Shown here: one piece after another, positions 1-16,445 of the stretch
Numbering within the stretch: the first letter of the stretch is position 1
How the letters are laid out: each line of letters starts with the position of its first letter
Assembly (NCBI GenBank): GCA_964486045.1
Contig: CAZALK010000012.1
Coordinates: 32,001-96,000 of the forward strand
DNA from: an uncultured archaeon
GTDB lineage: Archaea > Asgardarchaeota > Lokiarchaeia > Sigyniarchaeales > SOKP01
Direction: 5' to 3'
Length of the DNA stretch: 64,000 nt
The notes under the pieces: model-generated
Database searches by the model: none
What the model saw: the letters and a program-made list of their open reading frames with translations, nothing else
What the model was told of the DNA's origin: nothing
Translations under genes and position numbers: made by a program

Positions 1-135
1 ATAGTGTTTGTATTCTGAGGAGTCTATGCTACCGCGTAAAATATCGGCTGCGGTCCATAAAAATGATTCTAACTTATCGAGGGCTAATTTCGGCATTTTT
101 CGACCCGACCATTTGTCTAATTCTTTTTGAGGCAT
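1..135 (-). CDS. hsdM: Type I restriction-modification methyltransferase subunit M, N-terminal 45 codons (runs off window start; not in ORF track)
   Basis: Manual translation from ATG at 135: MPQKELDKWSGRKMPKLALDKLESFLWTAADILRGSIDSSEYKHY. LESFLW-AADILRG-D-SEYK is the HsdM N-terminal motif. Confidence 0.88.
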   Translation of the reverse strand, partial: MPQKELDKWSGRKMPKLALDKLESFLWTAADILRGSIDSSEYKHY

Positions 136-489
136 TTTTCTACATTCACTCTAAATATAAAAATCATTATATTATTTACAATTTTCAGTTTTTTTATTAG
201 TTTCTCTTAGTGAATTAATAACTGGGGTCTTAATCTTAAAATTAATTGGATAATAGGAAAAACAAAATCAGATATTATCTTCTTTAGATGGATTTTCAAT
301 TATCAAGAAGTGTTAATCTCTTATCCCCCATCCATTTTATATTAGTAAGAAGTAATAATTAAGTAGAATAAGTCAACAATTTTGGATTAAATATAGTAAA
401 TTCTAAATTTTTTGAGAAAAATGAATATTAAGTCTAGATTAGCATTATTTAGCTTGATTAAAAAATTTCCAAATTAAAGAGGAGAGTTA

Positions 490-2883
490 ATGGAATATGT
501 AAACTATAATGGTAAAAAATATCTAGTTAACAACTTTAAGTTAGATTTAAGTGGAGAAGGCATCAAGGATATAGCTCAAATTAAGAATTTAAAAAATCTT
601 ACAACTGTTAAATCATTAGATCTTTGGAACAATTCTATTTCAAATATCAGCGGGTTTGGAGAAATACCACAATTACAAGAATTAAATTTACGAGATAACA
701 ATATAGTTGAAGTCTGCGGTTTAGATAACCTTGAGAATCTTGAGGTACTAAATATTGCAAATAATAAGATTAAAAACCTTTCAGGTTTAAAAACCTTAAA
801 AAAATTGAAAAACCTAGAAATACACGGCAATCAAATTGAAGATATAAATGGCTTAAACAAATTAACTAATCTTGAAAAATTAGGACTAAGTAGTAATAAA
901 ATAAGTAAGATATCAGGATTAGATTCATTAGAAAAATTAAAAGATTTATATTTAAACAATAATCAGATTGAAAAAATAGAAAATATTAATCATTTATCAT
1001 CTCTTTCTTACATAGATCTTAGCTCAAATCCAATTGACGAAATCGCTGGTTTTGAAAACCTAACAAACTTAAAAAACATCAAGTTAAATAACACGTTAAT
1101 TAAAGAGGAATTGTTCACAAAGTTAGGAGGTCTTAAAGCTGATTTATCCAGCAGCTATACAGTTAAGGAGCCACAGAACCTTGTGAAATATTGTCGAGGG
1201 GATTATGTTGAGTATCAAGATAAGTATTTTTTCTTGAATGGCAAAACGCTTGAATTGAACAAACTAAGAATTAAAGATATCAGTGATATTAAACGGTTAA
1301 AGGAATTAGATTTTTTGGAACATTTAAAATTAGCTAACAATCAAATAAAAGAAATTAAAAATCTAAACGCTCTTGTCAATTTGAAAAGTCTAGCCCTTAG
1401 TAGTAATCAAATAGAGAAAATTAAAAATCTTGATTCCTTAAGTAACTTAGAAATACTCGCACTTAATGATAATCAAATACTGGAAATCAATGGACTCGAT
1501 AAATTAGAAAAACTCCAAAAACTAAATATGAGTAATAATAATATCACTAAAATTAAGGGTCTTAAAAATCTACAACATCTAAAACAATTAATATTATCTG
1601 GAAATAGCATTAATTCAATTGAAGACCTACAAATGCTTAAAAATTTGGAGTATTTGCATATAGCAAGTAATAATATCAATAAATTTCAAGGACTAGATAT
1701 ACAAATAAATTTAAAATGGTTATATTTAGAAAATAATAATTTAACTTCCGTAAAGGGGATTGAAAAGTTAAGTCGTTTAGAGATTTTGAATTTAAATAAT
1801 AATTCAATTAATGACATTGAATACATTACTGAGTGTATAACTTTAAAAAAATTATATCTGGGGAATAATAAAATAGCCAAATTTGAGGATTTAGGAAATT
1901 TGGTTAATTTAATCTTTCTTAACATCGAAAACAATAAGATTGATGCCAATTTATATGAAATTTTAAAATTAACAGACAACAGCCCTCGATTGTTTGTGAG
2001 TTATTGCCTTCTAAGGCAATTAATAGAAAATATGGAAAAGAAAATTATATGGTCTGATTCTATAAGGAAATATCCTTACTTAAAAGGTATAAATTATGAT
2101 GAACTTAGAAAAATTTCGTCTAGATTTAGATATGTGGAAATTCTAATAAATAATAATTATGAGATTCAGGCTATTGTGACTCCTGAATGTTTAGTAGTCG
2201 AACTTGATACAATATTAGAACCTTTCCCTGAAAATGAAGATTTAAGTTATACTTTTTTAAGAGAAAAATTAAAATTAATAACTGATAAGGCTGCTAAAGA
2301 ATTTAGTCTATATATAAAAGAAAAAAGATTATCAAAGTATCCCATATATGAAACTGAAAAAGGAATAAGAAAATTAGGAAAAGAACAATTAACACATCAA
2401 CTAGTTATTTATGATGCACCAAATCAAAGATTTTTTCTCAACAGAAGTCAATTTGAGTTTAGACTAAAGCAGATTGACAAATTTCTTACATTTAATAAGA
2501 AACAATCTTCCCAAATTTATAAATATGCATTTATCACTGATGAGATAATTAAAAATAATAGTGCAGCAATTAACTTTTTAGAACAAAAATTAAATTGGCA
2601 TTTGATCTATGTCTCTAAAGATGAAAAAACCACAGATATCGATGCTAAGATTACAACTTTTGTTAACGATCTAAATAACCTTTATTCAAGAAGATGGGAT
2701 ACAATTCATCTAATAACAGCTGACCACCAATTAATAAATTTCTTTTTAAATACTTTTAAAACCACTCCTTTAACGAATCTCTTCTTTATTACTAATCCTG
2801 ATGAAGATCTCCTTACATCTATAGGTGAACTGAAAAAATATGATAATGACAACCTAAATTTAAATATTTATCATAGAGCTTGA
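490..2883 (+). CDS. Leucine-rich-repeat protein (two SDS22-like LRR blocks) with C-terminal NYN/PIN-like domain
   Basis: About 20 LxxLxLxxNxI repeats of 22 aa. C-terminal motifs VIYDAPN...KTTDIDAKI...DTIHLITADHQL resemble NYN/LabA. GGAG upstream of the ATG. Confidence 0.85.
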   Translation: MEYVNYNGKKYLVNNFKLDLSGEGIKDIAQIKNLKNLTTVKSLDLWNNSISNISGFGEIPQLQELNLRDNNIVEVCGLDNLENLEVLNIANNKIKNLSGLKTLKKLKNLEIHGNQIEDINGLNKLTNLEKLGLSSNKISKISGLDSLEKLKDLYLNNNQIEKIENINHLSSLSYIDLSSNPIDEIAGFENLTNLKNIKLNNTLIKEELFTKLGGLKADLSSSYTVKEPQNLVKYCRGDYVEYQDKYFFLNGKTLELNKLRIKDISDIKRLKELDFLEHLKLANNQIKEIKNLNALVNLKSLALSSNQIEKIKNLDSLSNLEILALNDNQILEINGLDKLEKLQKLNMSNNNITKIKGLKNLQHLKQLILSGNSINSIEDLQMLKNLEYLHIASNNINKFQGLDIQINLKWLYLENNNLTSVKGIEKLSRLEILNLNNNSINDIEYITECITLKKLYLGNNKIAKFEDLGNLVNLIFLNIENNKIDANLYEILKLTDNSPRLFVSYCLLRQLIENMEKKIIWSDSIRKYPYLKGINYDELRKISSRFRYVEILINNNYEIQAIVTPECLVVELDTILEPFPENEDLSYTFLREKLKLITDKAAKEFSLYIKEKRLSKYPIYETEKGIRKLGKEQLTHQLVIYDAPNQRFFLNRSQFEFRLKQIDKFLTFNKKQSSQIYKYAFITDEIIKNNSAAINFLEQKLNWHLIYVSKDEKTTDIDAKITTFVNDLNNLYSRRWDTIHLITADHQLINFFLNTFKTTPLTNLFFITNPDEDLLTSIGELKKYDNDNLNLNIYHRA

Positions 2884-3021: not shown

Positions 3022-4020
3022 ATGATTGATAAAATCGAGAAAATTGGACAAAAGTTATTAGGAGATATGTATTCTCATGGTTTTTCGACATCTTATGATA
3101 AAGACTTAATACAATTATTTCCAGAACAGAAAGAAAGGGACATTAAAGATGCTGTGAAGTTTCTTTCCAAAAAAGGATTTATTAAAGTTATAGGTATGGA
3201 TTATATTTCCCATAACTTTTTCCTTAAAGATTTTTCTGGTAACATTACTGATATAGGTGTTTTAAACATAGAAGACAATGATTTTAATGATCAGGATAAA
3301 TATAGTGTTGAAATAATTAGATTTTTACAAATAATTGATGACTCAAATGAAGAATCTTTATTTATTGATAAAATAATCCCAAGAATAATACAGAAAGGTT
3401 CAAAAAAAACAGAGGAGGATTTAAGGTTTTTCATTTGTACTTGTATAGAATATTCTTGTAATGTACAAAAAACATGGTCTGGAAGTGGTATAATTAGTCA
3501 ATTATATGTAAATAACAATACTTCTCCAATTACAGATATAGGTATGAATATCCTACAAGATTTTATCAACAAAACTGAAATTTTAACAAGTCCTTTAATA
3601 ACAAATAGAGATATGATAATAGAAGAATACAATTCTCTTGTATTTTTAATAAAAAACAAGTTATGGAAAGATGCATGCATTAAAATGGGTTCAATTTTAG
3701 AGTATCTTTTAACAAAATGGTTAGAATCTAAAAAAATTGCACAAATTAATCATATACAGGATAAGAAGCTAAAATCCTTGGATAAAGCCTGGTTTTATGA
3801 TAAAATAATGTATTACATTGAAACAGCTCGATATGATTATAACAATGAAATTGGGAATGGTCCTCAATGGGAAATTGTTAACAAAGTAATTCGGGGATAC
3901 AGAAATTACATTCATCTGCAAAAATATGAAAAAAGAATTGCAAAAGATGGATATTTAGAAAAAAATGATTATGAGTTATTAAACATACCATTTAATCAAA
4001 TTATAAACTATTTTAAGTAA
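3022..4020 (+). CDS. Hypothetical protein: winged-helix-like N-terminus and C-terminal HEPN-like (DUF4145-like) domain
   Basis: ACIKMGSILEYLL helix followed by IRGYRNYIH (R...H motif, RNYIH at 3901-3915); N-terminal VKFLSKKGFI...ITDIG wHTH-like pattern. Confidence 0.6.
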   Translation: MIDKIEKIGQKLLGDMYSHGFSTSYDKDLIQLFPEQKERDIKDAVKFLSKKGFIKVIGMDYISHNFFLKDFSGNITDIGVLNIEDNDFNDQDKYSVEIIRFLQIIDDSNEESLFIDKIIPRIIQKGSKKTEEDLRFFICTCIEYSCNVQKTWSGSGIISQLYVNNNTSPITDIGMNILQDFINKTEILTSPLITNRDMIIEEYNSLVFLIKNKLWKDACIKMGSILEYLLTKWLESKKIAQINHIQDKKLKSLDKAWFYDKIMYYIETARYDYNNEIGNGPQWEIVNKVIRGYRNYIHLQKYEKRIAKDGYLEKNDYELLNIPFNQIINYFK

Positions 4021-6028
4021 TCTCTTGAAGTGCACGATCAAGTTTATGGTTTAATGTTTTGATTAAGTATTTCTCACCTGTAGCACCATTGATTACCAAT
4101 GCAAGTCTATTTTCTAATTGCGTTAAAATTTGCCTTTCGACAGGATCTTCAGAAAAAAGGAGATTATTAGGATAATCCTCCCTGAATATAACCTTAATGC
4201 TTGGTTGGGACACCACATCATCAAATAAACGAGCTGGAGATTGGTCTGCAATAATAAATCCAACACCACGGCTTCGATATTCCTTTAATAATTCCGAAAA
4301 AATTTTAGCCATTTGTTCTTTCATAATAAAATCAGCGTCATCACTATTTGTAGTAATGGGTTTTTCTGTAATAGCATGGGCTTCATCAATAACAATTAGG
4401 TATTTTAACTCCTCTGCTTCGCTATCTTTTGTCACAGTTCTTACAAGCTGAAATATCGAATTTACAATTAACATCTTTATAAATTTACTACACATAGACA
4501 AATCAAGAAATATTTTACTGCCGTTCAACCAATCTTCAACCCATTTAGGCAGTGATTCTGTGATTTTTAATACATCTTGAACTTTGTTTTCGTCAAAAGT
4601 GTTCATTCGATTTCTGAAAACCTGCAATAAATTAGCCTGCTCTTCAGGACCGTAAGGATTATTTCTAATGTACGTTTCTACACCCCTTAGTAAACCTATA
4701 AAGAATTCTGGCAGCTGACCCTTTAACTCTAAGAAACCCACTTCAGTACGATAAATAATCTTTTCAAACACATTCTTTAACCCTAAAGATGCGCAAATAT
4801 AGGTGGCGGTTTCCTGCAACCTTTTTTTTAGAGTTTCTTTCTCAGCGTCTATAAAATAAGGGATACTAAAATCCTCATCAGAATATTTTACTTTGCTAAA
4901 GTCTCGATAAAATATCTCCTGAGATTCTTTCGCCACATTAAGAACAAGGATGCCAACATTTTTAGCTTTAGTAGTAAGTTCTGCTATAAAACGAGCAAGA
5001 AAATAGGTTTTCCCACTGCCAGATTTCCCAAATATCGCCAAGTCTTGAGGAAGCTTATTAATTGGTATAAATGTTTCATGATCCGTTATAACACCGTCTT
5101 TAATATGGTTTCCGACACTTATGGCTTTTCTCTTGAATTCATCGTGAATGTCGATGTATCTGACGTTTTCATTTTCTAAAATGGGCAATCTGGGCAACGG
5201 AAGAGTCTCTGGAAAATCGAAATTAACATCTTCTTGAACATAATTTCTCAACGATTCTTTATTGTTGTTAAACACATCCCCTTTTAGTATATCTAAGTGT
5301 GAAATTTCTGAAGGAGTAATAATCCTCGCCCGATCACCCAATTGATTTTCAATATCCATAGATAAAAATTGGAGTATGCCTTCCAACTTTAATTTATCCT
5401 CAACCTCCGAGTTTTTTAAATGAAATTCTACAAAAATTCTTAAGTTGAATAAGTTTGACTGCTCTTGAGATTTTTCAGAACGAGGTTCTCTGCGCCATAG
5501 AATGAATAGCTGGACCGTATGTTTTGTAGTGTAATAAAAGGCACTAATAAATCTCTCAATGATGTTAATTTTATTCTTGATAAAACCTTGTGGCAGGATT
5601 ATTTCTAGTAAATGACCTTCCTTCTGGGTTTCGTGGTCTTGTTTCAGAATAGATTTTGCCTTAACTGTTCCGTCTAATCCCCTAAATTTATATTTTAAGT
5701 TTGAAAGCCAGGCATATCCCTTTTTAATTGCATCAGATTTCGAGTCTGACTTTGTAAAAAATACTACCTCTACATTGTCTTTTGCTGTGAGTTCGAGACC
5801 ATAACTACCTGGAGGATTGTAGCCAAAAGGATCATACAGAAAAGACCTAATGTCCTCATGCCTTTGATAAAAAGGGACTGCAGTTTCTGGAATAATATCC
5901 GGGATAAAAAGTTCTGGGGCTTGCGTTATCTGAATCCGAGTCTGCCAAAATGACTCATCCTCTTCTTTATTGGCTATTTGTTTAGGGCTCTCCGCCACTC
6001 TCAACCCCTGCCTTAGGATATTCCTCAT
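4013..6028 (-). CDS. HerA/FtsK/VirB4-superfamily P-loop ATPase (DUF87-like); probable start GTG at 5998
   Basis: Walker A GKSGSGKT, Walker B IVIDEAH, arginine-finger region EYRSRG, ADQSP motif; overlaps the stop of the upstream GIY-YIG gene. Confidence 0.85.
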   Translation of the reverse strand: MRNILRQGLRVAESPKQIANKEEDESFWQTRIQITQAPELFIPDIIPETAVPFYQRHEDIRSFLYDPFGYNPPGSYGLELTAKDNVEVVFFTKSDSKSDAIKKGYAWLSNLKYKFRGLDGTVKAKSILKQDHETQKEGHLLEIILPQGFIKNKINIIERFISAFYYTTKHTVQLFILWRREPRSEKSQEQSNLFNLRIFVEFHLKNSEVEDKLKLEGILQFLSMDIENQLGDRARIITPSEISHLDILKGDVFNNNKESLRNYVQEDVNFDFPETLPLPRLPILENENVRYIDIHDEFKRKAISVGNHIKDGVITDHETFIPINKLPQDLAIFGKSGSGKTYFLARFIAELTTKAKNVGILVLNVAKESQEIFYRDFSKVKYSDEDFSIPYFIDAEKETLKKRLQETATYICASLGLKNVFEKIIYRTEVGFLELKGQLPEFFIGLLRGVETYIRNNPYGPEEQANLLQVFRNRMNTFDENKVQDVLKITESLPKWVEDWLNGSKIFLDLSMCSKFIKMLIVNSIFQLVRTVTKDSEAEELKYLIVIDEAHAITEKPITTNSDDADFIMKEQMAKIFSELLKEYRSRGVGFIIADQSPARLFDDVVSQPSIKVIFREDYPNNLLFSEDPVERQILTQLENRLALVINGATGEKYLIKTLNHKLDRALQEIT

Positions 6029-7886
6029 CTATATCATCATAATCCTTATCCCCTTTCTCTTGAGGACTGTCAATTCCATCGAAATCACTACCTTTTTCTG
6101 TGATAGTGTCATCTAATCCATGATAATCAATATGAGATTCACCGTCATACTTATCGATTCCCTTGAAATCCTCTCCCTTATCCCCCCTGGTTTGATCAAT
6201 ACCTTCATAATCGTTAGATTGTTTCTCACCAGAAGCATCATGTACATGTCCGGAAGTAAACTTAGGTTTTTCGTCTCTTTTATCTCTACTCTTATCCAAA
6301 TCTGTTCTCTCTTTCGACTTTTCTTCATCTGATGAGACGAGTTCAAGAGGACCAATAATTATCCCCTTAGGAGGTTTTCTAGAAAATTCATTTGAGAGAT
6401 TATCAGAAGACTTTTCAAACTGATTTTCTTGTTGATCATCCGACTCATCGGTTGGGGCAACCATAGGGGATTCTTCAACGTCAATAATCTCTTCCTCTGA
6501 TGGGTCATCACTCTTCTCATCTTTTTGTTCTTCTGTAGACTTTTCTTTTTCCCCCTCAACTTCCTCTTCTTGATCTTTCTCAACTATTTCATCATCTTTT
6601 TTTTTTCTTGAATTTTTATCATCTAAAGAACCTTTATCTGTGTTTTTCGGAGTTGAATCCTTCCCTTCTAACTTTTCCTCGCTTGTTGTGTCCTCAGATT
6701 TTTCAGAATTATCTATGGATTCCTCATTATTTCCTTGCTCTTCTGCCTGTTTTTCCTGGATATCCTTCAACACATCATTTATATCTTTTCCTTGTAAGTA
6801 ATCCTTCAATTCTGTATAATTTTTTGGTCCATTGGGTCCAAACATTTCCTTGATTCTTTTAGTAAATGCAGTTTTCCCAATATCATACTTTTCAAGCATC
6901 TCCTTCTTAGGCATATTGTTTTTGATATCATTCAAAAATTGTCGTTTGTCACTTATCTCCTTCTTAGTTTTTTTTCCAATTTCACGCATTTTATTGATAA
7001 AATTAGGATCTTTTGCTCTCTCTTTCCTCTCATCCTCCTGTTTTTTTCTATATTCCGAATCATTACCCCATTTTTTTGTTATAGTTTTACTCATTTTCTC
7101 ACTATACCCTGGCCTTTGGGTAATCTCACGATTAATTTTTGTAATCTTTTCTCTCCATTCTGGATTCTTAGCCCTTTCTTGATTTATTTTTGTCATCTTC
7201 TCTCTCCATTCTGGATCCTTAGCCCTTTCTTGATTTATTTTTGTCATCTTCTCTCTCCATTCTGGATCCTTAGCCCTTTCTTGATTTATTTTTGTCATTT
7301 TCTCTCTCCATTCTGGATTCTTAGCCCTTTCTTGATTTATTTTTGTCATTTTCTCTCTCCATTCTGGATCCTTAGCCCTTTCTTGATTTATTTTTGTCAT
7401 TTTTTCAAGAAAATCTTTATTTTGTGTCAATTCCTTTCTAGCATTCATTTGCTTTTCGATATATTGTGGATCTTTATGCCATTTTTCGGACGAAATATTA
7501 CTTAATTTTTCTCTTACTTCTTGACTTGGTCTACCCCCCATTCCACCTTCAGTCATATTATAGCCTTTAGGAACCATTGAGTCATAATCCTTAATGTACT
7601 GAGTTTCTTTTTTATCTAATTCTTCTTGATTAGAAGCTACATCTTGTTCTATCAATTTAAAATTCTCTGGACCGTATTTAATAATGGCACTTTCTATAGA
7701 ACGAAGATTTTCTCCTCTTCTTTGTTTCGCATAAGCTTCTCGGACTTCTTCGTTCCAATGTTCTTTAATTGGAATTTTGTCATCTCCCCAACGACTTGTA
7801 ACAGTCTGTCCTAGATAATTCTTTCCATTCTCGTCATTATTTGCTCGATAAATATAACCAAAAGGAGCTTTTTCACTCTTAACCAT
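5982..7886 (-). CDS. GIY-YIG nuclease with 17-aa helical tandem repeats and long acidic C-terminal tail
   Basis: GYIY...NGKNYLGQT, AIIKYGPENF, ELDKKE, GYNMTEGG motifs. Start re-assigned to ATG 7886 (MVKSEK). Confidence 0.85.
   Translation of the reverse strand: MVKSEKAPFGYIYRANNDENGKNYLGQTVTSRWGDDKIPIKEHWNEEVREAYAKQRRGENLRSIESAIIKYGPENFKLIEQDVASNQEELDKKETQYIKDYDSMVPKGYNMTEGGMGGRPSQEVREKLSNISSEKWHKDPQYIEKQMNARKELTQNKDFLEKMTKINQERAKDPEWREKMTKINQERAKNPEWREKMTKINQERAKDPEWREKMTKINQERAKDPEWREKMTKINQERAKNPEWREKITKINREITQRPGYSEKMSKTITKKWGNDSEYRKKQEDERKERAKDPNFINKMREIGKKTKKEISDKRQFLNDIKNNMPKKEMLEKYDIGKTAFTKRIKEMFGPNGPKNYTELKDYLQGKDINDVLKDIQEKQAEEQGNNEESIDNSEKSEDTTSEEKLEGKDSTPKNTDKGSLDDKNSRKKKDDEIVEKDQEEEVEGEKEKSTEEQKDEKSDDPSEEEIIDVEESPMVAPTDESDDQQENQFEKSSDNLSNEFSRKPPKGIIIGPLELVSSDEEKSKERTDLDKSRDKRDEKPKFTSGHVHDASGEKQSNDYEGIDQTRGDKGEDFKGIDKYDGESHIDYHGLDDTITEKGSDFDGIDSPQEKGDKDYDDIDEEYPKAGVESGGEP
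7150..7404. repeat. Five tandem near-identical 51-bp repeats (coding: K[M/I]TKINQERAK[D/N]PEWRE)
   Basis: Unit tctctccattctggat[c/t]cttagccctttcttgatttatttttgtcat[c/t]tt[c/t] starts at 7150, 7201, 7252, 7303 and 7354. Confidence 0.97.
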
Positions 7887-8262
7887 TTTTATATTTTTGT
7901 CTGTTTTCAATACTGTTTTAAAACAAGTATTTAAACTACAAACTTGGGAAGAGTAGGTAATTAACACATAGAAATGACATTTTTGATTCAATAGAACTCT
8001 CTGAAAAATAAGTTAGCTTTATTTTTCATTTAAAAATAATCAACACTAGTATATGTAAAAATATTATAGAATCCGAGAAATAATGAAAATGTCATTTCAA
8101 ATATTTAAACTGCTAAAATGAGAGAAAAAACCTAATGATGATGTGAATTGAAGAAGATTTTGTTTAAAAAGATATATCCACAAACAAGCTAAACAATAAT
8201 TAAAATTTAGGAATTTAATTTTCTTTAAATACCTCTATTTTAAATTTGCATAAAAAAAAGTT

Positions 8263-8667
8263 GTGAAACTTATGAAGGAAGAAGTATATGAGAAAATAAA
8301 AGATGATCTCCCAGAACAGTTAAGGCAAGATATAAAGAAATACGGATTAGAAAATTTTGATTTTGAGATATTAGACTCCGCTTCTAGCAAGGAAGAGCTA
8401 GATAGAAAACAAAAAGAGTATATTAAGAAATACAATTCACTTGAGCCCCAGGGATACAATTTACCTGAAGAAAAAAAAAAGTATGAAGATATGAGCATTG
8501 ATGAAATTATTGAATTGCTCGTAGAAGTTAGAGTAGATTTGGATTTATTAAAAAAATCAATCACCTCAAAAGAAATAATAGAACAGCTAAAATGGGCAAT
8601 GAATGGAATTGACATCGTTGGGTGCGAACTCTCTCAAAATATTGCTAAAAAACTAAAAGGAAAGTAA
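8263..8667 (+). CDS. Truncated GIY-YIG-like protein (C-terminal half of the nuclease domain only) plus helical tail
   Basis: IKKYGLENFDFEILDSASSKEELDRKQKEYIKKYNSLEPQGYNL aligns with the neighbouring GIY-YIG protein, but there are no GIY/YIG strands. Confidence 0.7.
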   Translation: MKLMKEEVYEKIKDDLPEQLRQDIKKYGLENFDFEILDSASSKEELDRKQKEYIKKYNSLEPQGYNLPEEKKKYEDMSIDEIIELLVEVRVDLDLLKKSITSKEIIEQLKWAMNGIDIVGCELSQNIAKKLKGK

Positions 8668-14926: not shown

Positions 14927-16354
14927 TTAAACCTTAATTTTACATGATTTTACTATCTGTGTTCCAAAAATGTCAATCATTTTGACTGACAAATTAAAAA
15001 TTCCTGGTTTTTGATATACGTGTGGTTCAGATGTTAACTTCAATCTCCTTTTCTTCGGAGTCCTAAAGGAAATCCACATATTAGTAAAATAACGATCTTT
15101 TCTATCATAATCAATAGCCCAATAGTCTATCCAATCTGAAAAAGTTATGATTTTTTCTTTTATTTTTAGAGGAGTAATTTTATTTTTAGGAACTACGTAG
15201 TTTGACAACTGAACAGTTACAACATTACCATCCTGTTGAATATCTAATATTAGGTTTGAAGACTTTTGATTCTGGTCTGAATTTCCATTCATTACAGAAA
15301 TCTGAAAAGAATGAGGATGTTTATTATATTCTTGTTTCCAATTCAATATATCATTACTTGCTTTTATATTAAGAACTCGCTTTTTGGACATGTGGATAGC
15401 TTGATAATTTGAATCACATCCCATCCATCGTCTACCAAGTTTTTCTGCAACTGATAAAGTTGTACCAGAACCGCAAAAGAAATCTGCTAAAAGATCTCCC
15501 TCATTAGTTGATGCTAAAATAATTCTCTTTAAAAGTCGTTCTGGTTTTTGAGTAGAAAAACCTTGATACTCATTGACATTTGCCCTAATATAAGGAATAT
15601 CATTCCAGACATCCCTTGGGAAAATTCCCTCATGTTTTATATAAACCTTCCGAGATAATTTTTTTCCATTATGGCTACCTCCTCGATAGTAGAATATTCC
15701 ATGCTCATCTTTTTTTAAAGCATTCTTTACTCGATTTGAGTACTCCATATATATATTTGGATCATCATTAAAAACAAAATCATCTGATTTAGTATAGAAA
15801 AGGATAGTATCATAGGATCTAATAAAAAATCGTCTAGTTTTAGCTGAAGCAGCGGGATAAGCCCATACTATCTCATTTCTGAAATTGTCAATGCCAAATA
15901 TTTCATCCATTATCAATTTTATGTAATGAGAGATATGCCAGTCTAAATGAACATAAATAGATCCATTAGTAGTTAGAAGTTTTTTCATTAGAACTAATCT
16001 TTCTTGTAAAAATCTTAAGTAAGAGTCTATTCCCTTTTCCCATTTATCTATATAGGCAATTTCATTAATAAATTCTCCATTTTCACCTATTTGAATCTTA
16101 AGGTTGAAGTCTCCACCAGTTGCAAAGGGAGGATCGATGTAAATAAGAGCTATTTTATCGTTAAATTTACTCAGTAGAGAACTCATTACAGCTTTATTTT
16201 CTCCCCAAATCAATAAATTTTTCCATTTTTCTTCTGAATTGAGGTCAGTTCTAATTGAAGGGAAAAGATCAAGAATATGGAATGGTTTTTTATCATATTT
16301 TTTTGAATAAATTTCTTCTTTTTCCACTTTTCCATTCCATTTCAAATTTACCAT
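14927..16354 (-). CDS. Orphan beta-class N6/N4 DNA methyltransferase (Mod-like)
   Basis: IYIDPPF precedes TQKPE and DFFCGSGTT. Start re-assigned to ATG 16354 (MVNLKW). Confidence 0.92.
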   Translation of the reverse strand: MVNLKWNGKVEKEEIYSKKYDKKPFHILDLFPSIRTDLNSEEKWKNLLIWGENKAVMSSLLSKFNDKIALIYIDPPFATGGDFNLKIQIGENGEFINEIAYIDKWEKGIDSYLRFLQERLVLMKKLLTTNGSIYVHLDWHISHYIKLIMDEIFGIDNFRNEIVWAYPAASAKTRRFFIRSYDTILFYTKSDDFVFNDDPNIYMEYSNRVKNALKKDEHGIFYYRGGSHNGKKLSRKVYIKHEGIFPRDVWNDIPYIRANVNEYQGFSTQKPERLLKRIILASTNEGDLLADFFCGSGTTLSVAEKLGRRWMGCDSNYQAIHMSKKRVLNIKASNDILNWKQEYNKHPHSFQISVMNGNSDQNQKSSNLILDIQQDGNVVTVQLSNYVVPKNKITPLKIKEKIITFSDWIDYWAIDYDRKDRYFTNMWISFRTPKKRRLKLTSEPHVYQKPGIFNLSVKMIDIFGTQIVKSCKIKV

Positions 16355-16445
16355 AAATATAAGATAAGAAGGCAAAAATTTTATTTTTACTTTAACTATA
16401 AAAATTATATTTTTTTTTAAAAATAAGACAAGTTGATTCAAATTT

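Follow-up and report, generated by a model that had tools for sequence, protein, structure and literature searches.

An open reading frame of an archaeal genome (5.18 Mb in 45 contigs, G000 in our comparison) encodes a protein in which two cassettes of leucine-rich repeats (LRRs) are followed by two winged-helix (wH) domains and a divergent C-terminal NYN nuclease domain, an LRR-wH-wH-NYN architecture that is real and apparently undescribed. In full-text literature covering few subscription journals, no paper combines Asgard, leucine-rich repeat and NYN and none describes an LRR-NYN fusion, which agrees with the original prediction that this is not a described system. We propose that the protein is a stand-alone cytoplasmic defence or conflict RNase of the Promethearchaeota (Lokiarchaeia) whose LRRs recognise a trigger, a reading to which we give an even chance. 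Features of the locus are collected in Table 1, where the window is the whole 64,000-nucleotide stretch of DNA that was analysed. The frame was judged to be a real gene on the strength of its homologues, three of which are full-length at 57% identity, and of purifying selection, with dN/dS at ~0.2-0.3 over the whole gene (C-terminal domain, Table 1). A sigma-70 promoter scan came out near chance level with a bacterial-type consensus that is ill-suited to an archaeon.

Table 1. Features of the LRR-NYN locus, numbered from the first nucleotide of the window.
Feature	Position	Strand	Description or basis
hsdM, 5' end	1..135	-	Context, not partner; complete type I RM operon extending beyond the window
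Shine-Dalgarno-like GAGGAG	479..484	+	Sequence; 5 nt ahead of the ATG
LRR-LRR-wH-wH-NYN gene	490..2883	+	797 aa, soluble; highest 19-residue hydropathy (Kyte-Doolittle mean) 1.13
LRR cassette 1 (aa 1-237)	490..1200	+	N-cap, 8 canonical 22-aa repeats and 1 degenerate, C-cap
LRR cassette 2 (aa 238-498)	1201..1983	+	Duplicate of cassette 1; 10 canonical repeats and 1 degenerate
Winged-helix domain 1 (aa ~499-563)	1984..2178	+	Helix-strand-helix-helix-strand-strand order in AlphaFold2 model; basic, pI 9.4
Winged-helix domain 2, PCI/wH type (aa ~564-632)	2179..2385	+	VIA structural matches
Divergent NYN (PIN-like) nuclease domain (aa 633-797)	2386..2880	+	VIA, Atlas NYN clusters, dN/dS 0.12-0.23
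Predicted active-site codons	2413..2724	+	D642 (2413), N645 (2422), D684 (2539), D716 (2635), D718 (2641), T743 (2716), D745 (2722)
332-aa gene with HEPN-like RNYIH motif	3022..4020	+	Context, not fixed partner; patchy separate family

In the LRR part, 18 repeats match the motif and are spaced 22 aa apart; two further, degenerate cap repeats can be made out in the sequence, in keeping with the figure of about 20 LRRs given earlier, and Pfam LRR_4 is matched with E=5e-65. Its two cassettes are 38% identical to each other (E=1e-45), each with its own caps. The AlphaFold2 model of aa 470-797 (mean pLDDT 86.8) places two winged-helix domains between the LRRs and the NYN domain, so that the region formerly read as a linker (aa ~499-632) consists, by this model and by VIA structure comparison, of two domains. 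The second of these, searched as part of the larger model, matches PCI, NiaR and Z-alpha winged helices at Z 7-9, including a COP9 signalosome subunit (VIA Z 9.2, rmsd 1.7, 61 residues) and NiaR (VIA Z 8.3); Pfam gives no LOTUS/OST-HTH domain in the winged helices. The first, which is basic, is a candidate RNA-binding part. Neither a transmembrane segment nor a signal peptide was found by hydropathy in the 797-aa protein, and no NTPase/GTPase switch family is matched in Pfam, the LRR, wH and NYN regions filling all 797 residues. A complex prediction of the LRR part with the wH-NYN part scored 0.02.

The C-terminal domain almost certainly has the NYN fold. In a VIA comparison covering 48,161 solved chains, the modelled C-terminal domain matched best to mouse MARF1 NYN (5YAA; Z 13.2-13.4, rmsd 2.7, 138-139 residues aligned), human MARF1 (6FDL; Z 12.7) and VPA0982 (2QIP; Z 10.9), the next alpha/beta folds following at Z 9.0 or less. 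A second family member, modelled independently, again had MARF1 NYN on top (Z 13.9), so that two models each bear out the NYN/PIN fold of the original prediction, and both Atlas searches with the C-terminal domain led to NYN clusters. Two other assignments were rejected: Foldseek on multi-domain models placed methyltransferases on top, mostly at rmsd ~20 Å and TM ~0.2, which is generic Rossmann noise, and the CARF fold reached Z 8-9.5, well under NYN, and would leave the invariant acids unexplained. The domain is only 9-13% identical to solved NYN domains and matched nothing in Pfam or PADLOC, while across the family three of 22 members match Pfam NYN (PF01936) weakly (E=0.005-0.13), under its gathering cut-off of 24.2 bits. 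A PDB sequence search returned designed proteins only, with weak E-values, and no RNA holder was listed. Two ordinary NYN/LabA genes lie elsewhere in the source genome, whose two PF01936 matches do not include the 797-aa protein, and a profile-profile comparison with these canonical NYNs gave a probability of 4% with a template of two sequences. By structure the domain belongs to the NYN group, but it lies outside Pfam PF01936 in its curated form; its family has motifs of its own, DxxNQ and KxDxD, as well as one additional invariant Asp, and SGDxDF is cut down to (S/T)xD.

In MARF1 the essential aspartates are D178, D215 and D272, which end strands 1, 2 and 4, and D246, which starts helix 3, N181 and S270 being likewise conserved (PMC6217404); in the NYN group of PIN-like domains one Asp follows strand 1, another opens the core helix and a third follows strand 4, while a fourth acid comes after strand 2 (PMC5499597; PMC6217404). 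The NYN group also lacks a large helical cap behind strand 2, its active site being exposed. In our model D642, D684 and D745 lie at or just past the ends of strands 1, 2 and 4, a short helix (aa 684-689) after strand 2 running into a further one (aa 691-699) ahead of strand 3, and D716/D718 lie at the start of the helix following strand 3. By secondary-structure position and alignment register, D642, N645, D684, D716-D718, T743 and D745 correspond to MARF1 D178, N181, D215, D246, S270 and D272, and the motifs singled out earlier are all there: YDAPN (D642/N645), KTTDIDAKI (D716/D718) and DTIHLITAD (T743/D745). Where relatives cover these positions, D642 and N645 are conserved in 20/20, D716 and D718 in 22/22 and D745 in 21/21 sequences; the beta-2 acid at position 684, Asp in the query, is Asp or Glu in 16 of 22 members. 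The last Asp of the site had been called replaced, which is right for the +2 position of SGDxD, Q747 here and Asp in 12 of 21 relatives; a degenerate site is not supported, D745 being invariant and the +2 Asp lying outside MARF1's essential four (PMC6217404). Because four MARF1-equivalent aspartates are in place and the Q747 position is not essential in MARF1, the predicted active site appears competent, with the catalytic residues apparently intact in the model and alignment.

By analogy, then, the C-terminal domain is probably an active RNase. That this NYN-fold domain instead binds without catalysis, or has DNA as its substrate, we consider very unlikely. The sub-threshold Pfam matches (best member E=0.005), the 9-13% identity to solved NYN domains, the Gln at the +2 position and the varying beta-2 acid all speak for such a domain, and winged helices are often DNA-binding; however, four acidic positions and the Asn are invariant even in the least similar family members, at 26% identity to the query, the protein offers five candidate acids (D642, D684, D716, D718, D745) where PIN-like domains require about four (PMC5499597), and characterised NYN domains cleave RNA (PMC6217404; 10.1101/2024.04.08.588522).

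Among 1.84 billion representatives searched there were 20 relatives, and eight of these share the LRR-wH-wH-NYN order (P0001-4, P0006 (partial), P0008, P0011 and P0014). At least four kinds of N-terminus precede NYN domains of this subfamily, namely LRR-wH, a non-LRR domain with one wH (P0007), and two mutually unrelated domains of ~280 aa and ~370 aa; searches with the non-LRR N-termini, including that of a ~440-aa family, gave no identifying match. The close alleles P0002-P0004 are mosaic, their wH and NYN regions grouping differently (chi-square p=1e-14): in the wH region 73 informative sites unite P0003 and P0004, the alternative groupings having 29 and 16, while in the NYN region 71 unite P0003 and P0002, the alternatives having 21 and 22, a pattern that, at the level of these alignments, indicates recombination between modules. 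The family is present in 4 of 161 genomes at class level and 4 of 400 across the phylum (Asgard), many of these genomes being incomplete, and all four carriers belong to one Lokiarchaeia family. A partial family record on a 3.6-kb contig is labelled Ca. Thorarchaeota. Viral contigs contained no relatives when searched with the LRR-NYN query. Three of the four genomic copies are broken: the G025 copy, from the same genus as the source and 55-56% identical, has two internal stops, that of G123 is a fragment, and that of G022 is frameshifted towards the end of the LRRs, the wH-NYN part remaining as an intact frame that has a start of its own.

This patchy, island-borne and recombining distribution would also suit a selfish, self-neutralised toxin, in which the LRRs would form a built-in antitoxin clamping the RNase, loss or cleavage of the LRRs would free the toxin, and the gene would persist on mobile islands as addiction cargo and not as the sensor of one particular invader. 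The PIN fold is well known from toxic RNases (PMC5499597), and HerA-like and GIY-YIG-like genes lie close by in G000 and, as fragments, in L002. Against this, the wH-NYN frame left in G022 would, if expressed, release a strongly toxic domain that should not be tolerated, and twenty repeats in two cassettes provide far more surface than a clamp requires, so we regard a toxin as decidedly unlikely.

The neighbours of the family suggest an association with defence genes, which we claim only qualitatively because a control set from the same genome (99 proteins, 124 kb) held RM-type matches too, among the 25 families listed on each side. In G000 the gene is indeed divergent from hsdM, as first described; hsdM belongs to a complete type I RM operon (hsdM-hsdS-hsdR and YgjP) that lies head-to-head with the LRR-NYN gene, with 354 bp between the start codons, and this operon is the strongest of nine N6-methylase loci in the genome. 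In G025 a CD-NTase-like (CBASS-like) cyclase gene (E=5e-16) is head-to-head at 361 bp, and the LRR-NYN gene lies upstream of a TcA-like gene. In G022 a DUF4209 gene with a HEPN-like motif adjoins the LRR-NYN gene and a TIR-like gene, a single weak domain match, is 2 kb off, and the G123 fragment has a complete Pycsar pair at a distance of 2.4 kb. Each of the four genomes thus has a different defence-library gene within ~2.5 kb, three of these four neighbours being complete or strong matches, a coincidence that is suggestive because Lokiarchaeales carry a mean of 5.8 known defence systems per genome (10.1101/2023.09.13.557551). Elsewhere, a PIN_4 gene and a C5 methylase accompany the family member in L003, and non-LRR forms lie beside SIR2, AlbA_2 and PDC-M11A in L051 and beside GmrSD-HNH in L046, so that the expected tie of homologues to defence neighbourhoods is seen in both forms; the available DNA of three metagenomic loci (L008, L025, L049) has no firm defence match. 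A PDC-S45 match was also seen, without a link to a single gene.

No adjacent gene is conserved across the loci, no tRNA was found near the loci checked and no cas genes in the flanks read, and PADLOC 2.0 returned no match for the LRR-NYN protein. With no conserved neighbour, a two-gene system with hsdM or with the downstream HEPN-like gene was rejected; the family of the latter occurs in 11 of 161 genomes, mostly without LRR-NYN, and a homologue lies near LRR-NYN in just one other locus (L025). The label "HEPN-like" itself holds as far as the RNYIH motif goes and finds no Pfam or PADLOC match. A dedicated pairing with the CBASS-like cyclase was likewise rejected, G000, G022 and G123 having no match to the cyclase model.

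LRR proteins are enriched in Asgard archaea, their function being unresolved according to a 2026 preprint (10.64898/2026.10.28.762692). The source genome has 43 LRR ORFs, and in Pfam no enzyme domain is recognisable in its other LRR proteins, bar one PCI domain. One concave-face repeat position of the present array, picked post hoc, is hypervariable, with an identity of 0.20 against ~0.5 at other surface positions, and its dN is close to the gene-wide dS; taken together, the concave positions show no significant excess of variation (p=0.11). We find it equally easy to believe and to doubt that the LRRs act as the trigger sensor.

The LRRs might instead be an address label that attaches a constitutive RNA-turnover nuclease to a partner in the host, such as a ribosome, an RNP or a decay complex, much as eukaryotic CCR4/CNOT6 docks on CAF1 through its LRR, in which case the protein would regulate transcripts of the host or of resident elements in the manner of MARF1. 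The nearest structure is that of MARF1, an mRNA-decay nuclease with winged-helix RNA-binding domains (PMC6217404), NYN + OST-HTH proteins are common in bacteria, an NTPase switch is lacking, and the abundance of LRR ORFs would make LRRs general adaptors in this genome. A housekeeping factor should, however, be widespread and syntenic, whereas this gene is rare, often broken and set among varying neighbours, and the genome already has its two canonical NYN/LabA genes; a docked nuclease therefore seems to us unlikely.

A role in defence or conflict is the reading that we favour with some confidence, and rarity, decay, module swapping and neighbours, as read from genome sequences, lend it moderate support. 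Counted for a defence RNase were MARF1 NYN as the top fold, the conserved catalytic positions, purifying selection, modularity, patchiness, the defence neighbours and the hypervariable concave position; counted against it were the siting in defence islands, which is common to many accessory genes, the RM-type matches in the control set, the three metagenomic loci with no firm defence match, the unremarkable variation of the concave face as a whole, and the beta-2 acid D684, Asp or Glu in just 16 of 22 members. Judging by its family, the NYN domain would act as an endonuclease on single-stranded RNA with Mg2+ or Mn2+ as the required metal, and the winged helices would help to grip RNA like the winged-helix LOTUS domain of MARF1, whose cleavage needs that domain as well as the four Asp (PMC6217404). 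The architecture and genomics suggest that the concave LRR faces would bind a protein trigger, which may come from a virus or mobile element or be a guarded host protein, and that binding would bring the nuclease to RNA or turn it on; invader transcripts or bulk RNA would then be destroyed, with dormancy or death as the outcome. Siting in a defence locus does not by itself make an NYN domain a triggered effector: the CRISPR-associated NYN of Bacteroides fragilis cuts RNA alone in vitro, and immunity in E. coli does not require it (10.1101/2024.04.08.588522).

More tentatively, and with doubts outweighing our confidence, we raise the possibility that archaea have immune receptors of an undescribed class that do without a switch: their variable LRR array would directly gate an NYN ribonuclease, and one Lokiarchaeia-specific NYN effector would be shuffled among at least four sensor modules. 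If true, this would give a function to part of the unexplained Asgard LRR expansion and provide a prokaryotic parallel, ancestry not implied, to the eukaryotic antiviral and anti-transposon NYN/PIN RNases (MARF1, MCPIP1, N4BP1). The finding carries limited weight, since the gene is rare (4 of 400 genomes) and nothing marks it as ancestral to eukaryotic receptors. The divergent NYN subfamily, missed by Pfam and PADLOC, seems to be a swappable effector near defence genes, and, with an LRR array coupled to an enzyme whose activity would be easy to read out, what Asgard LRRs recognise becomes directly testable.

Among known proteins, the CCR4/CNOT6 deadenylase, a conserved housekeeping gene product, likewise has LRRs and then an RNA nuclease in one soluble chain; its EEP fold is unrelated to NYN, and it has few LRRs, docking on CAF1, against the 20 found here. 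The LRR-AP-GTPase(Roc)-COR-effector proteins and the NLR/Avs STAND receptors resemble the LRR-NYN protein (PMC8195603) in having N-terminal LRRs and a C-terminal enzymatic effector in one chain and in swapping sensor and effector modules among relatives. They differ in their NTPase/GTPase switch, in whose place two winged helices stand here between sensor and effector, and the passages of PMC8195603 on such proteins list no NYN behind LRRs. Because it has no NTPase switch the LRR-NYN protein is not an NLR, nor is it an Avs, Roco or TLR protein, and kinship to the eukaryotic LRR immune receptors, which the original prediction saw it as resembling, is not supported, since there is neither an NTPase nor a membrane part and LRRs are abundant in the genome.

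On the nuclease side, the prokaryotic NYN/LabA/DUF88 proteins (PF01936; VPA0982, 2QIP; NYN + OST-HTH) share the fold (Z 10.9) and the DxxN, KxxD and S/TxD motifs, whereas the present domain falls under the Pfam cut-off, has its own DxxNQ/KxDxD motifs, sits behind large variable N-termini and is confined to one Lokiarchaeia family among the genomes searched. The NYN of the Bacteroides fragilis CRISPR type III-B locus also belongs to a defence locus and has three core Asp equivalent to D642, D716 and D745; it is a Mn2+-dependent ssRNase, an activity that is predicted here, and stands alone in a CRISPR operon with a proposed role in crRNA trimming, whereas ours is fused to LRRs (10.1101/2024.04.08.588522). 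Closest in structure is MARF1/limkain-b1 (NYN + RRM + LOTUS; 5YAA, 6FDL), which restrains retrotransposons (PMC6217404) and which shares the NYN fold (Z 12.7-13.4), the pairing of the nuclease with winged helices, and four Asp, an Asn and a Ser/Thr that match by position; at 9-10% identity, the archaeal protein is an accessory gene product that carries its NYN domain at the C-terminus behind 20 LRRs and no RRM, and its winged helices match PCI/wH structures.

The subfamily of predicted PIN-like NYN ribonuclease domains found in the LRR-NYN protein is also fused to two conserved N-terminal domains of ~280 and ~370 residues (P0009, P0010, P0015, P0016, P0019-P0022 and P0024-P0027, and P0012, P0013, P0017 and P0023, respectively), which are candidates for new sensor domains. 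The fold of the ~280-residue domain was predicted with good confidence (pLDDT 82), and the folded model had no clear match. In the genome that carries the window, the cap type of the LRR-NYN protein recurs in two other LRR proteins (table), and the combination of LRR and winged helix likewise occurs again.

The gene island upstream of the LRR-NYN gene comprises the type I restriction-modification genes hsdM, hsdS and hsdR, a YgjP peptidase gene, several orphans and a gene whose product combines a dsRNA-binding motif with PD-(D/E)xK-like residues. Homologues of one orphan (L001:5845-6705) lie close to the NYN gene in two other loci, L003 and L021. Within the window, the HerA/DUF87-like and GIY-YIG-like genes may make up an integrated element's core; fragments related to them likewise flank the homologue in locus L002. 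The product of one of the two GIY-YIG-like genes is internally repetitive and carries a long acidic tail. The methyltransferase-like ORF lies 12 kb from the LRR-NYN gene.

Features of the window, its genome and the homologous loci
Feature	Location	Strand	Details
Co-oriented island genes	L001:3727-16135, directly upstream of window	-	about 12.4 kb
Multi-cassette LRR protein	L038:1-2787	-	929+ aa; cap type as in LRR-NYN protein
LRR-PCI protein	L040:5045-6391	-	cap type as in LRR-NYN protein
HerA/DUF87-like ATPase and two GIY-YIG-like genes	window 4013-8667		adjoin thermosome gene
Stand-alone DNA methyltransferase-like ORF	window 14930-16441	-	DPPF motif
TcA-like gene	L019:10755-16508 (G025, contig C2)	-	1917 aa; Pfam TcA_TcB_BD E=6e-115, ABC_toxin_N, neuraminidase-like
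CD-NTase-like cyclase gene	L019:6346-7230	-	PADLOC cyclase model, E=5e-16
Complete Pycsar system	L021:6996-8276 (G123)	-	PycC E=1e-56, PycTM E=5e-27

In the Promethearchaeota genome G025, the TcA-like gene is located directly downstream of the broken LRR-NYN homologue. The Pycsar system of G123 sits in a Lokiarchaeia defence island, separated from the NYN fragment by a PIN_4 gene. The cyclase gene of G025 is followed by a 208-aa gene, with which it may constitute a CBASS variant.
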